The position numbers and the translations under genes were made by a program. Below, in pieces: positions 4,482-64,000 of a stretch of 64,000 bases of DNA; the stretch's first letter is position 1, and every line of letters begins with the position of its first letter. The DNA is from an uncultured Pelagibacteraceae bacterium (lineage in GTDB: Bacteria; Pseudomonadota; Alphaproteobacteria; Pelagibacterales; Pelagibacteraceae): contig CACNAR010000003.1 of assembly GCA_902618485.1 (NCBI GenBank), forward strand, positions 32,268 to 96,267. Direction: 5' to 3'. The notes beneath the pieces were generated by a model. That model saw nothing but the letters and a program-made list of their open reading frames with translations. It searched no databases and was not told where the DNA came from.

Positions 4482-5855
4482 ATGACTTTAGTTAAAAAAA
4501 TTAAAGATAAAAAAGTAAATTTTGAATTTAATAAAGAATTTATAAAAGTTGTCACAGATAAAATAGCTAATAATGATGCATTATTTATTATCAATTCATT
4601 CAAAGAAATGCATCCTGCAGATGCAGCCGATATTATTGAACATTTAAGTGAAAATGATAGAGAAAGTTTAATTAAATTAAACAGTTTTAGAATTGATCCA
4701 GAAGTATTTGTGGAGCTAAATGAGTCTGTTCAAACAGAGATTATTAAATTTTTATCTTCAGAGTCAATCGTTAGAATATTGAAAAATCTTGAATCTGACG
4801 ATGCAATAGCGATTTTAGAAAATATTGAAGAAAAGAATAAAAATTCCATCCTGAGCGCTTTACCCCCTAAAGATCGTTTTGCTTTACTAGAAGGACTTAG
4901 CTATCCAGAGGATAGTGCTGCTAGAATAATGCAAAGGGAGTTTACAGCAATTCCAAGTAATTGGTCAGTTGGTCAGACAATTGATTATTTAAGAGAAAAC
5001 AAAGATTTACCAGAACAATTTTTGGAAATCTTTATTGTTGATGAAAATTTTAAACCAATTGGCACTGTACCTTCATCTAAAGTTTTACGAACACCAAGGG
5101 AAACAAAAATGTCTAATATTATGGAGGAGACAATTTTTTTAGTACCCGTAGATATGGACAAAGAAGAAGTAGGTAACTTATTTGAAAATTATGGGTTAAA
5201 TTCAGCATGTGTGGTTGATAAGAACAATAAACTTGTTGGAATGATAACTTCTGATGATATTTTGACAGTTTTAAAAGAGGAAGCTGAAGAAGATACGTTA
5301 CGACTTGCCGGTGTTGGTGATGAGGAAATTACAGATGGTGTATTTACTAAAACAAAAAGAAGATTTAATTGGTTATTATTAAATTTATTTACTGCTTTCC
5401 TAGCGACTTGGTGCATAAGTTTATTTGGAGCAACTATTGAACAAATGGTAGTTCTTGCTTTTTTAATGCCGATCGTAGCTTCGATGGGTGGCAATGCTGG
5501 AATGCAAACATTAGCCGTAACAGTGAGATCTTTGGCAACAAATGATTTAACAAAAAATAATTTTAGTCAAAATATATTAAAAGAATTTAATATTGGAGTT
5601 TTAAATGGAATAATCTTTGCTATTATTAGTTCATTAATAGTTCAATTATGGTTTCAAGATAGTCAACTTTCTTTAATAATTTCTATTTCAATGATTTTGA
5701 CAATGATCATAGCTGGTCTTTTTGGAATTCTAGTTCCTGTTTCATTAAAAAAAATGAATATTGATCCAGCCATAGCATCTAGTGTATTTGTAACAACAAT
5801 TACTGATGTGATTGGGTTTGTGTCCTTTTTAGGTGTTGGTGCATATTACTTTTAG
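4482..5855 (+). CDS. mgtE: magnesium transporter MgtE
   Basis: N-terminal MgtE_N (HPADAADIIEHL), tandem CBS region, and a C-terminal 5-TM domain with PIVASMGGNAGMQ. Confidence 0.92.
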   Translation: MTLVKKIKDKKVNFEFNKEFIKVVTDKIANNDALFIINSFKEMHPADAADIIEHLSENDRESLIKLNSFRIDPEVFVELNESVQTEIIKFLSSESIVRILKNLESDDAIAILENIEEKNKNSILSALPPKDRFALLEGLSYPEDSAARIMQREFTAIPSNWSVGQTIDYLRENKDLPEQFLEIFIVDENFKPIGTVPSSKVLRTPRETKMSNIMEETIFLVPVDMDKEEVGNLFENYGLNSACVVDKNNKLVGMITSDDILTVLKEEAEEDTLRLAGVGDEEITDGVFTKTKRRFNWLLLNLFTAFLATWCISLFGATIEQMVVLAFLMPIVASMGGNAGMQTLAVTVRSLATNDLTKNNFSQNILKEFNIGVLNGIIFAIISSLIVQLWFQDSQLSLIISISMILTMIIAGLFGILVPVSLKKMNIDPAIASSVFVTTITDVIGFVSFLGVGAYYF

Positions 5856-28880: not shown

Positions 28881-28972
28881 GGAAAGGTGGGTGAGAGGCT
28901 TAAACCAGTCGTTTGCTAAATGACCGTGCGAGGAAACTTGTACCGAGGGTTCGAATCCCTCCCTTTCCGCCA
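28881..28972 (+). tRNA. tRNA-Ser (anticodon GCU), CCA encoded
   Basis: Acceptor GGAAAGG/CCTTTCC, D stem GGT/ACC, anticodon stem GTCGT/ATGAC with loop TTGCTAA. Long variable arm, T arm GAGGG-TTCGAAT-CCCTC, discriminator G plus CCA. Confidence 0.95.
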
Positions 28973-61707: not shown

Positions 61708-62553
61708 ATGAAGGCTATAACTTTTAATCTATTGGCCTGGGTAATGCTTCCAATTATGGATGGATTTGCAAAATATCTAAGTGCTGATCTTCCAGTTTTA
61801 CAAATAACTTGGGCAAGATATTTTTTTACCGTTGCATTTACTTTTCCAATTATGTTCCTATTTTTTAGAAAAAATCTTGTGTGGACTGATAAACCAAAAT
61901 TACAAATTACGAGAGGGATAATTCTTTTAACAGCTAATATTTGTTTCTTTTATGCAATTTCGATAATTTCTTTAGCTAAAGCACTAACTTTGGCTTTTGT
62001 TGCTCCTTTAATTGTAACTGCCTTTTCTCCAATTTTTTTAGGTGAAAGAGTTGGATTTAGGAGATGGTCTGCAGTTATTATAGGATTTATAGGTTCATTA
62101 GTAGTTATAAGGCCTGGTTTTGTTGAAATAAATTTAGCAAGTATTGCTGCGCTTGGGACAGGTGTAATGTATGGATTTTATTTAATTATTACTCGTAAAT
62201 TGAGCACTTCAGACAACCCTTTATTAACTTTATTATTAACTGGTTTAGTAGGGGCCATAATCATATCTTTTGTGATGCCATTTGTTTGGGTTAAACCTAA
62301 TTTTAATCAGTGGTCTATCATGGCTGCAATAGGTATTTTTGCATGTTTAGGCCATTTTTTTCTAATATTGTCTCTTAAATACGCTGATGCCTCTAAATTA
62401 GCTCCATTTAGTTACTTTGAAATTATTACAAACATAATTATAGGTTATTATTTCTTTAGTGATTTCCCCGATAATTGGACTTTCTTAGGTTTATTTATTA
62501 TTGTATTAAGTGGTATCTATATTTCAAGAAGGGAGAACTTAGTAAAAAAGTAA
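61708..62553 (+). CDS. EamA/DMT-family transporter
   Basis: 281 aa, 10 TM segments in two EamA-like repeats (GERVGFRRWSAVIIGFIG linker motif). Confidence 0.8.
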   Translation: MKAITFNLLAWVMLPIMDGFAKYLSADLPVLQITWARYFFTVAFTFPIMFLFFRKNLVWTDKPKLQITRGIILLTANICFFYAISIISLAKALTLAFVAPLIVTAFSPIFLGERVGFRRWSAVIIGFIGSLVVIRPGFVEINLASIAALGTGVMYGFYLIITRKLSTSDNPLLTLLLTGLVGAIIISFVMPFVWVKPNFNQWSIMAAIGIFACLGHFFLILSLKYADASKLAPFSYFEIITNIIIGYYFFSDFPDNWTFLGLFIIVLSGIYISRRENLVKK

Positions 62554-63019
62554 GATAATAGGTATCATCTGTTTACTATTATCTAAAGTACTACATTAAG
62601 TGTTTATATTAAACTATTGTTTTTATTATATTTTATTAATAATATAAATAATATAACTTTTTTATACTTTGGATTATTTAATGTTAAAATTTGATTTATT
62701 TACTGAGCAAGAGTGGTGATTTATAGCAAATTATGAAAAATATCAAATAGTCCTTTAAAATAGGGGGTTTTTTCCGATTGTGGTAATTAAAATTTCCTAA
62801 AAATAGGGCAGTCTAAAAGCATTGATATAGTTAAATAGTAGAGCGATGCACTAATTGAATATACCATTTAAACGCCCGTAGAGGGGTCTATTTTAAGTAT
62901 AGGCTAATATATGGTACAACTAAAGGGTGAATTATGTTATTTAGAAAGAAATCACGTAAAAAGGTAAAAAAAGGTTGATTTTACTTACTTTTTTAACTTA
63001 AAAAAGGTTTAAAATAACG

Positions 63020-63298
63020 CTAAATAGATACTTTTTCAGATCTAAGTAATTTGAGCTTTTGCCTGATTCCACCTTTCCCAGAATAACCTCCAAGACCTCC
63101 ATCAGACCTAATCACTCTATGACAGGGTATTTTTGGAGCATATGGGTTTTTAGCACAAGCATTTGCGACTGCACGGGCTGCTTTAGGGTTTTTAATGGCA
63201 ATTGCTACTTGTTTATATGTTTTTACGCTTCCTTTAGGGATAGTTATTAGATATTTCCAAACTTTTAATTGAAATTTTGTTCCAAGAAGGGATTTCAT
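63020..63298 (-). CDS. ogt: methylated-DNA--protein-cysteine methyltransferase, catalytic domain only
   Basis: FQLKVWKYLITIPKGSVKTYKQVA...IPCHRVIRSDGGLGGY (PCHRV active site). ATG 63298 is preferred; the ORF-track TTG 63337 lies inside a terminator hairpin. Confidence 0.88.
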   Translation of the reverse strand: MKSLLGTKFQLKVWKYLITIPKGSVKTYKQVAIAIKNPKAARAVANACAKNPYAPKIPCHRVIRSDGGLGGYSGKGGIRQKLKLLRSEKVSI

Positions 63299-63301
63299 AA
63301 T

Positions 63302-63346
63302 AAAAAACCCTGATTCTTTACACTTTTTACGGTGCAAAGATCAGAA
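63302..63346 (-). terminator. intrinsic terminator on the minus strand, immediately upstream of the ogt-like ATG
   Basis: Minus-strand RNA UUCUGAU-CUUU-GCAC[CGUAAAAA]GUGU-AAAG-(A)-AUCAGGG followed by UUUUUU. Three G.U pairs become A.C mismatches on the plus strand, so the hairpin is strand-specific. Confidence 0.6.
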
Positions 63347-63507
63347 TTTTATGGCTCGTCGTTTTATGCGCTACCGCCGAACCGACCACCCTGTATGTTT
63401 AGCGCTGCTTTACAGGGTTTTCTGCCCTCCAGACTTAAACCTCTCGGCCTTTCTCTGGCTGGCCAGTTAAGAGTTGCCTCTTAAGTTGAGTTAACCATAC
63501 CAGACTG
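63347..63507 (-). ncRNA. unclassified GC-rich structured RNA candidate (riboswitch-like leader or stand-alone small RNA)
   Basis: About 56% G+C (hand count over 63352-63466) against an AT-rich background. Minus-strand hairpins capped by GCAA and GAGA tetraloops, an 8-bp hairpin whose loop can pair with downstream UAGCGC (pseudoknot), and a terminator directly 3'. No match by eye to tRNA, tmRNA, SRP, RNase P or common riboswitches. Confidence 0.5.
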
Positions 63508-63514
63508 AAATTTG

Positions 63515-63525
63515 AATTGTTATCA
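63515..63525. repeat. 11-bp direct repeat copy 1 (AATTGTTATCA)
   Basis: Identical 11-mer recurs at 63815-63825; the two copies bracket the small membrane ORF. Confidence 0.4.
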
Positions 63526-63581
63526 CTAATTAGTTGTTTTTTATAATTAAATGATTTTTCTGTGAATTTCGGGGATAACTT

Positions 63582-63791
63582 TTATTTTGTAAGCAATATT
63601 AGGTAACTGACAAAGAATATAATCGCCATACTTGATAGAAATATTGTATTTATACTTTTACCAGTATTTTTATATTGAATAACACTTAAGATAATAAATC
63701 CAATTGAACTTATTAAAAACCATACCGCAGGAATTTCTCCATCAATTGAACCCATATATTTATAATTTAAACTATTGACATTAAAAATCAC
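63582..63791 (-). CDS. small hypothetical membrane protein (two predicted TM helices)
   Basis: 69 codons, GTG start, two hydrophobic stretches (PAVWFLISSIGFIILSVI and TIFLSSMAIIFFVSYLILL). No family recognised, and such an ORF could arise by chance in AT-rich DNA. Confidence 0.4.
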   Translation of the reverse strand: MIFNVNSLNYKYMGSIDGEIPAVWFLISSIGFIILSVIQYKNTGKSINTIFLSSMAIIFFVSYLILLTK

Positions 63792-63836: not shown

Positions 63837-64000
63837 ATGAGTGAACTAACAACAGACCTAAAATCACTTCATGAAGCAACTCTAAATAACCTCAAGAGTT
63901 CTAAAGCAAATAATACATTAAGAGCTTATAAATCAGACTTTAGAGATTTTGGAGCTTTTTGTGCAAAGCATGGCCTGAATTCACTACCATCTGAACCTAA
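63837..64000 (+). CDS. tyrosine recombinase / phage-type integrase, N-terminal 54 codons only (runs off window)
   Basis: Not in the ORF track because it is open-ended. ATG 63837 gives MSELTTDLKSLHEATLNNLKSSKANNTLRAYKSDFRDFGAFCAKHGLNSLPSEP. The NT.RAY.SD...F..(F/W)C...G motif is the SAM-like N-terminal domain signature of tyrosine recombinases. Confidence 0.6.
   Translation, partial: MSELTTDLKSLHEATLNNLKSSKANNTLRAYKSDFRDFGAFCAKHGLNSLPSEP

Follow-up and report, generated by a model that had tools for sequence, protein, structure and literature searches.

An IMES-2 structured RNA gene of an uncultured Pelagibacteraceae bacterium: covarying fold, promoter elements and genomic contexts

The GC-rich element on the minus strand of the analysed window (the whole stretch of 64,000 nucleotides examined here) belongs to a known RNA family, IMES-2 (Rfam RF02035), and does not represent a new RNA class. 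IMES-2 is a chromosomal single-copy gene of SAR11 bacteria, and we consider it likely to be a stand-alone gene for a structured RNA that acts in trans. The RNA is an orphan catalogued in 2009. In its 2009 description the family reportedly came from marine metagenomes and metatranscriptomes, was exceptionally abundant and had no cultivated host, and RNAs of this type are said to have been among the most abundant transcripts in the marine metatranscriptomes of Weinberg and coworkers and of Shi and coworkers, both of 2009. The main value of the present work lies in the annotation of an orphan RNA, and it counts for little as a discovery. It contributes, as context, the Pelagibacteraceae carriers, two syntenic sites, the promoter motifs together with the terminator, and an explicit covariation between the loops of two hairpins (L3 and L4). 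With its location in defined SAR11 genomes established, the function of the gene can now be approached by experiment. The positions of all features are collected in Table 1.

Identification of the element

The whole 64-kb window was scanned against Rfam 15 at curated thresholds, and two matches were obtained, a tRNA-Ser and IMES-2. The IMES-2 match (cmscan; 63491 to 63351, minus strand) reached 148.3 bits, where the gathering score is 54.7, with an E-value of 1.2e-38, and covered model positions 1-141 of 141 without insertion or deletion. Moreover, a covariance model of our own (R1) scored the core at 149.7 bits. The first-pass annotation of this DNA had described the element as unclassified and as fitting no known family, which cannot be upheld because the match to RF02035 is full-length. 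The same annotation had taken a confident Rfam match as the mark of a known rather than a novel RNA, and cmscan on the element returned such a match, so that the proposed novelty is lost. The window sequence agrees with the upper-case consensus positions of the IMES-2 model, and the element shares with the described motif the four hairpins, the GNRA loops, the conserved junction and loop nucleotides and the marine origin; no feature sets it apart.

The tRNA-Ser was the sole find of ARAGORN in the window (28881-28972; Rfam match 28881-28969). In a permissive scan of positions 62500-63650 against Rfam (E<=10) no competing family and no riboswitch model appeared, and the models for tRNA, tmRNA, SRP RNA, RNase P and 6S RNA gave no match in this region.

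Two compositional and structural observations made at first reading were borne out. The G+C spike at 63352-63466 amounts to 64 of 115 nt (55.7%), compared with 28.6% for the whole window. The fold had been described as specific to the minus strand; the sole Rfam match at the site lies on this strand, and the 199-nt minus-strand RNA including the downstream hairpin folds at -70 kcal/mol, compared with -46.6 ± 4.6 kcal/mol for dinucleotide shuffles (z = -5.1). A plus-strand ORF of 50 aa across the RNA (63332-63484) was rejected as spurious, as the variation tracks base-pairing and not codons.

Table 1. Features of the IMES-2 locus in the window and pairing states of loops L3 and L4.
Feature	Positions	Strand	Description	Basis or remark
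Upstream motif	63521..63536	minus	CAAC-N6-AGTGATA, here CAACUAAUUAGUGAUA	Conserved among copies
Extended -10 box	63494..63502	minus	TGGTATGGT (TGn + TATGGT)	Conserved among copies
IMES-2 RNA core	63351..63491	minus	Full length	cmscan RF02035 and model R1
P1	63467..63484	minus	Hairpin, 7 bp, GCAA (GNRA) loop	100% of cells paired, 2 pairs changed on both sides
P2	63422..63466	minus	Long hairpin with bulge, GAAA/AAG internal loop and GAGA (GNRA) tip	
P3	63388..63418	minus	Hairpin, 8 bp, 15-nt loop L3 with GCGCUA	Rfam helix and covariation
L3 half of kiss	63400..63405	minus	GCGCUA	Pairs with 63368-63373
P4	63353..63383	minus	Hairpin, 9 positions, 13-nt loop L4 with UAGCGC	Rfam helix and covariation
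L4 half of kiss	63368..63373	minus	UAGCGC	Pairs with 63400-63405
Intrinsic terminator	63304..63350	minus	A-tract, 19-bp hairpin, U-tract to about 63299	MFE fold
ogt-type methyltransferase	63020..63298	minus	92 aa, C-terminal domain only, PCHRV	ORF and TIGR00589
Hydrophobic ORF	63582..63791	minus	69 aa	Upstream of IMES-2, same strand
L3/L4 state			AGCGCU/UAGCGC	Palindromic
L3/L4 state			AGUACU/AGUACU	Palindromic
L3/L4 state			AGCUCU/AGAGCU	Non-palindromic
L3/L4 state			AGUGCU/AGCAC	Non-palindromic
L3/L4 state			AGCACU/AGUGCU	Non-palindromic
L3/L4 state			AGAACU/AGUUCU	Non-palindromic
L3/L4 state			AGUUCU/AGAACU	Non-palindromic

Distribution and host range

When one genome per GTDB species was scanned with a first pattern, IMES-2 was located at about 93 or more loci in AT-rich genomes, each from a different isolate. 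Among the matches listed, all AT-rich genome carriers were titled Pelagibacteraceae, Pelagibacterales or Candidatus Pelagibacter, and one copy was present in each of these single-cell and metagenome genomes. A second pattern, which drew on the 5′ half of the RNA alone, yielded at least 120 further copies on marine metagenome contigs; ten of the most divergent of them scored 113-154 bits as IMES-2 in Rfam. Among the matches listed for the first pattern were also 27 GC-rich loci from other phyla (Acidobacteria, Anaeromyxobacter and others), which were dismissed as non-SAR11 hosts after a covariance model built from true copies gave no match to them. All relatives found thus come from marine SAR11 genomes or from marine metagenome contigs.

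Additionally, 2.9 million viral contigs (IMG/VR) were searched in three pattern scans, in which neither an IMES-2 copy nor a 5′ or 3′ fragment was detected. A phage origin was discarded, the scans having given just two GC-rich chance matches that were rejected by the covariance model. The 92-aa ogt protein encoded next to the RNA was found as an identical sequence on 22 contigs, ten of which were fetched; IMES-2 was present on 9 of the 9 fetched contigs that span the site, and the sequence of the tenth (L010) breaks off shortly before it would reach the site, upstream of ogt.

The cultured type strain HTCC1062 probably lacks IMES-2. Among its GC-rich intergenic regions, as inventoried in the literature, none is flanked by mnmA or ogt, and the published list of its structured RNAs names no 6S RNA (PMC2704228). 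Because of this apparent absence, IMES-2 is not considered universal, or universally required, in SAR11.

Secondary structure and loop-loop pairing

The structure given by Rfam was compared with the natural variation of the copies. In 75 distinct genome copies it pairs in 95.2% of cells, with 22 pairs changed on both sides. A model-guided alignment of 99 distinct copies, in which divergent metagenome variants were included, gave 94.7% paired cells and 28 pairs changed on both sides, compared with 32-42% in controls in which one strand was slid by 1-3 columns. The two Rfam helices of P2 comprise 15 pairs together, 9 of them changed on both sides, with 95-96% of cells paired. In P3 all 8 of the 8 pairs show changes on both sides (94.9% of cells paired), and in P4 this holds for 7 of the 9 pairs, one position being a G-A mismatch in 99 of 99 sequences. 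The lengths of P3 and P4 are nearly constant among homologues, at 8 and 9 positions. The GCAA loop of P1 is invariant among the aligned copies, and the columns of the conserved GNRA tips (GCAA in P1 and GAGA in P2) and of the GUAGCGC-type loops of P3 and P4 are invariant or near-invariant. Nearly all invariant nucleotides fall in helices, GNRA loops, junctions or the loop-loop pairing.

Three hairpins that had been drawn by eye in the first-pass annotation recur in this structure, each with compensatory changes: the one with the GCAA loop is P1 of the Rfam model, the one at 63429-63458 with the GAGA loop is the inner part of P2, and the 8-bp hairpin at 63388-63418 is P3. The possible closing helix between 63461-63466 and 63382-63387, which would have made a three-way junction, found no such backing. 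It pairs in 72.5% of cells against 72.6% in shuffled columns, the two pairs at its centre are disrupted in 54 and 74 of the 99 sequences, and positions 63461-63466 form the base of helix P2. The fourth hairpin, P4, was absent from that fold.

The pairing between the loops of P3 and P4 was assessed with the copies of the second pattern scan, in which the loops had been left free, as the first scan forced both loop sequences and therefore provided no test of a pseudoknot. The six-pair L3-L4 helix is paired in 96.3% of cells, against 5-53% in slid controls, and cells in which both partners have changed number 38, compared with 5.6 ± 2.0 in shuffles (0 of 500). Both central pairs are intact throughout. 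Seven complementary L3/L4 states were present in the second-scan set, five of which are non-palindromic (Table 1), and on account of these non-palindromic states the constraint is attributed to loop complementarity and not to a repeated protein-binding word shared by both loops. An H-type pseudoknot between GCGCUA and UAGCGC had been proposed from the single sequence; the pairing itself is upheld by the covariation, but its type is not, since UAGCGC sits in the loop of P4 and the contact is really a loop-loop kiss. The nearly constant lengths of P3 and P4 fit a side-by-side packing of the two hairpins, which an intramolecular kiss would probably lock, although the covariation would fit an intermolecular kiss in a dimer equally well.

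Promoter elements and terminator

Two conserved elements precede the RNA. The first, CAAC-N6-AGTGATA, is recognizable by its GTGAT, which in 202 of 204 distinct copies precedes P1 by 40-43 nt, in both genomic contexts; elsewhere in the window no enrichment of the motif was found. Its distance from the -10 hexamer, about 20 nt, is too large for a standard -35 element, and the motif probably represents a promoter-associated element of another kind, for example a regulator site or an unusual upstream promoter element. The second is the extended -10 box; of 205 distinct copies, 160 carry the pattern TGn-T[AT]nnnT with its end 7-10 nt ahead of P1. At control offsets the pattern was met in 3 and 0 copies at two positions and in 51 at a third, where it catches the GTGATA motif. 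On the basis of these elements, the predicted transcription start lies at about 63486-63488, next to an invariant A.

On the 3′ side, 134 of 169 distinct downstream sequences have, behind P4, a hairpin of -6 kcal/mol or lower that precedes a T-run; hairpins are also present in some of the rest. In all subtypes the terminator starts 1-8 nt after P4. The stem sequences of the terminators are wholly different between IMES-2 subtypes, with the core conserved, and judging by these unrelated stems the structure looks like a plain terminator selected for its shape. When the downstream sequences and the window were inspected by eye, no anti-terminator pairing common to the subtypes was seen. A simple promoter and terminator scanner missed both the -10 box and the terminator, whose loop and stem composition lay outside its rules, and it was replaced by the fold and by comparison among the copies. 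A strong terminator followed immediately by the ATG of an alkyltransferase gene had already been noted at first reading; this is confirmed by the 19-bp hairpin with its U-tract and by the ATG at 63298. The A-rich linker (CAAAACU) in front of the terminator appears conserved by inspection.

Genomic neighbourhoods

IMES-2 occupies two alternative conserved neighbourhoods. In class A, to which the window belongs, the order is a divergent tyrosine recombinase gene, sometimes a 69-aa ORF, IMES-2, ogt and then, in convergent orientation, the EamA, AEC and hom genes. In class B, about 60 nt separate the stop codon of mnmA (NF001138, 424 bits) from the start of IMES-2, and in most copies a convergent gene for a 233-aa membrane protein follows, then a metC-like gene and an MFS transporter gene. 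Among the matches listed, 42 of the about 93 genome copies lie after mnmA with no ogt nearby, and among the 120 metagenome copies listed 31 belong to class A and 85 to class B, the flanks of 4 being too short. Class B is probably the older site, because it contains all divergent loop variants. Gene order is rearranged in some genomes, with hom located upstream at L019, L103, L113 and L203.

At some class-A loci the 69-aa hydrophobic ORF has counterparts of 52-100% identity; it gave no family match. In the spacer between ogt and EamA, a basic micro-ORF of 14 codons (62935-62979) was considered and rejected, as its ATG and frame are lost outside the closest relatives. It adjoins a conserved block of the spacer, for which RNAalifold returned no consensus structure on either strand.

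The gene downstream in class A matches TIGR00589 (ogt) with 98.2 bits against a cutoff of 46.4. The terminator takes up all of the 52 nt that separate the RNA from the ogt ATG, so that no separate promoter fits into this gap, and the SD-like AGGG of ogt lies inside the 3′ arm of the terminator. For these reasons ogt is most simply regarded as a downstream passenger, whose expression is probably low and due to transcription that runs through the IMES-2 terminator.

A cis-acting role had been proposed in the first-pass annotation, namely that of a riboswitch or attenuator leader of the alkyltransferase gene. The class-B copies speak against it, since they follow mnmA without ogt. No shared anti-terminator was seen on inspection, and IMES-2 is not taken for a leader of ogt because in most genomes the gene downstream is convergent. 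In a broader form, IMES-2 would be a riboswitch-like sensor in which binding of a metabolite or ion modulates termination, and hence read-through to ogt in class A or antisense transcription into the convergent membrane-protein gene in class B. The compact fold, which combines two GNRA loops with a 'tuning fork' of kissing loops resembling that of purine riboswitch aptamers, would suit such a sensor, as would the succession of an aptamer-like fold and a terminator 1-8 nt after P4, which is the anatomy of an OFF riboswitch, and the dependence of the class-A ogt on read-through, given that this gene lacks a promoter of its own and has its SD within the stem of the terminator. The sensor is nevertheless unlikely in view of the lack of a consistent downstream gene, the two contexts being unrelated and the majority convergent, of terminator stems that differ wholly and for which no shared anti-terminator complementarity was seen on inspection, and of the single copy per genome.

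Proposed function and remaining alternatives

The same data favour the other option that had been raised at first reading, a stand-alone small RNA: promoter elements of its own are conserved in both contexts, a terminator follows, and the gene resides in two different contexts. A stand-alone RNA also fits the high transcript abundance that has reportedly been seen in the ocean. Transcription would proceed from the RNA's own promoter near 63486-63488 and end at the terminator near 63300, and a discrete RNA of about 185-190 nt would result, its ends and abundance being predicted. The GNRA loops would probably add tertiary contacts, and the compact fold may then act in trans through a protein, or possibly a small ligand, and not in cis on the neighbouring gene. 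Recognition by a protein or a small ligand is favoured over antisense pairing with mRNAs, because the invariant nucleotides are used by the RNA's own fold. A protein as the specific partner is a candidate whose chance we put somewhat below even.

SAR11 is the ocean's most abundant heterotroph and has very few protein regulators. A more far-reaching and rather doubtful reading is that IMES-2 is a SAR11-specific trans-acting riboregulator of an uncharacterised kind, that is, a transcript about 190 nt long and very abundant, with a dedicated promoter carrying the near-invariant CAAC-N6-AGTGATA and a kissing-loop fold that titrates a protein or senses a small molecule. If this were true, CAAC-N6-AGTGATA could be the target of a candidate regulator.

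A base-pairing sRNA that acts on mRNAs in trans through the CAAAACU linker and the 3′ halves of L3 and L4 would share the own promoter and the Rho-independent terminator with U-tract that make up the usual anatomy of an sRNA, and could draw on the apparent conservation of the linker; it is nonetheless quite improbable, as the invariant nucleotides are nearly all spent on the RNA's own fold and the segments left free are short, A-rich and uninformative at 29% G+C. The stand-alone structured RNA with a protein or ligand partner is therefore preferred to it on the grounds of where the invariant nucleotides lie.

That IMES-2 serves as the attachment site of the neighbouring tyrosine recombinase, an integration target as suggested at first reading and comparable to the tRNA and tmRNA genes that serve many integrases, is very hard to believe despite the proximity of the recombinase gene (about 350 nt upstream, 63838 onward, plus strand), its score of 72 bits, which falls far short of the XerC/XerD cutoffs (330), and the rearranged gene order at the four loci named above, for the recombinase lies divergently on the 5′ side of the RNA and not at its 3′ end, resembles a resident gene in being syntenic among the class-A genomes (59-100% identity) and has no counterpart among the genes within 3 kb in class B, no 13-mer of 63351-63491 recurs in the 64-kb window (the repeated 13-mers of the window number four and fall in the AT-rich flank only, and the 12-kb relatives L001 and L002 have none), and no 5′ or 3′ fragment of IMES-2 was found in the IMG/VR viral contigs.

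Comparison with known RNAs

As a stand-alone structured RNA, IMES-2 can be set beside several known systems. In purine riboswitch aptamers, a loop-loop interaction holds two hairpins in parallel. IMES-2 likewise has two adjacent hairpins of near-constant length with covarying loop pairing, but it differs from these 'tuning fork' aptamers in having no closing P1 helix around the junction, no conserved downstream gene and no match to a riboswitch of Rfam.

The 6S RNA is an abundant RNA of about 185 nt that binds RNA polymerase and forms a long rod with a central bubble. The predicted size of IMES-2 and its nature as a single-copy stand-alone gene are similar, and the IMES-2 family, too, is reportedly of high abundance; IMES-2 is, however, built of four separate hairpins instead of a rod, and the 6S models of Rfam did not match it. 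It cannot be a general 6S substitute of SAR11, because HTCC1062 appears to lack IMES-2 as well.

In company with IMES-1, IMES-3, IMES-4, the raiA motif, OLE and GOLLD/ROOL, IMES-2 belongs to the conserved, intricately folded and well expressed orphan RNAs that came out of similar surveys, with none of which it has a relation in sequence or structure. OLE, GOLLD and ROOL RNAs reportedly multimerise (PMC12286853). IMES-2 is much smaller than any of these three.

Conserved motif upstream of the IMES-2 RNA

In 202 of the 204 distinct IMES-2 copies among the matches listed, the motif CAAC-N6-AGTGATA was located approximately 40 nt 5′ of the RNA, and it accompanied IMES-2 in both genomic contexts, i.e. 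upstream of ogt (class A) as well as after mnmA (class B). The motif may represent a binding site for a regulator. Its distance to the −10 box is too great for a normal −35 element.

Features in the vicinity of IMES-2 and elsewhere in the window
Feature	Position	Strand	Remark
tRNA-Ser (GCT)	28881-28972	+	Rfam / ARAGORN
ogt-EamA spacer	62554-63019		
Conserved spacer block	62830-62935 (chiefly)		non-coding
ogt-type protein gene	63020-63298	minus	product 92 aa
CAAC-N6-AGTGATA motif	63521-63536	minus	near-invariant among IMES-2 copies
Tyrosine recombinase gene	63838-64000; 4509-5462 in relative L002	+ (window)	product 317 aa

Genes and spacers flanking IMES-2

At only 92 aa, the ogt-type protein carries PCHRV in its C-terminal methyltransferase domain and is devoid of the N-terminal domain. 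Its gene has no room for a promoter of its own, and its ribosome binding site is located inside the stem of the IMES-2 terminator. The spacer between ogt and EamA is, with 466 nt, unusually long for SAR11 (412-541 nt in 42 relatives) and contains a conserved block with the consensus …TGCA..GAATAT.C..TTTAAACG.CC.TAGA.GGGTC…GTACAACT.AAGGGTGAA…, for which neither a consensus fold by RNAalifold on either strand nor an Rfam match was obtained; an adjoining 14-codon ORF lacks conservation.

In class-B loci (e.g. L033) a conserved ORF convergent with IMES-2 encodes a multi-pass membrane protein of 233 aa without an NCBIfam match. This ORF ends approximately 35 nt past IMES-2, so that the terminator region is common to both genes.

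Contig ends, recombinase and further RNA genes

Among the matches listed, about 40 of the 120 metagenome contigs break off within IMES-2, in most cases in the 3′ half of the gene. Assembly breaks at the transition from the highly conserved core to stems and flanks that vary between strains are the likely cause; the underlying search pattern also favored the detection of 3′ breaks. Besides IMES-2, the tRNA was the only RNA gene identified in the window by Rfam or ARAGORN. The tyrosine recombinase scored far below the XerC/XerD family cutoffs, and its synteny is kept across many SAR11 genomes, with rearranged gene order around it in some (hom upstream in loci L019, L103, L113 and L203).
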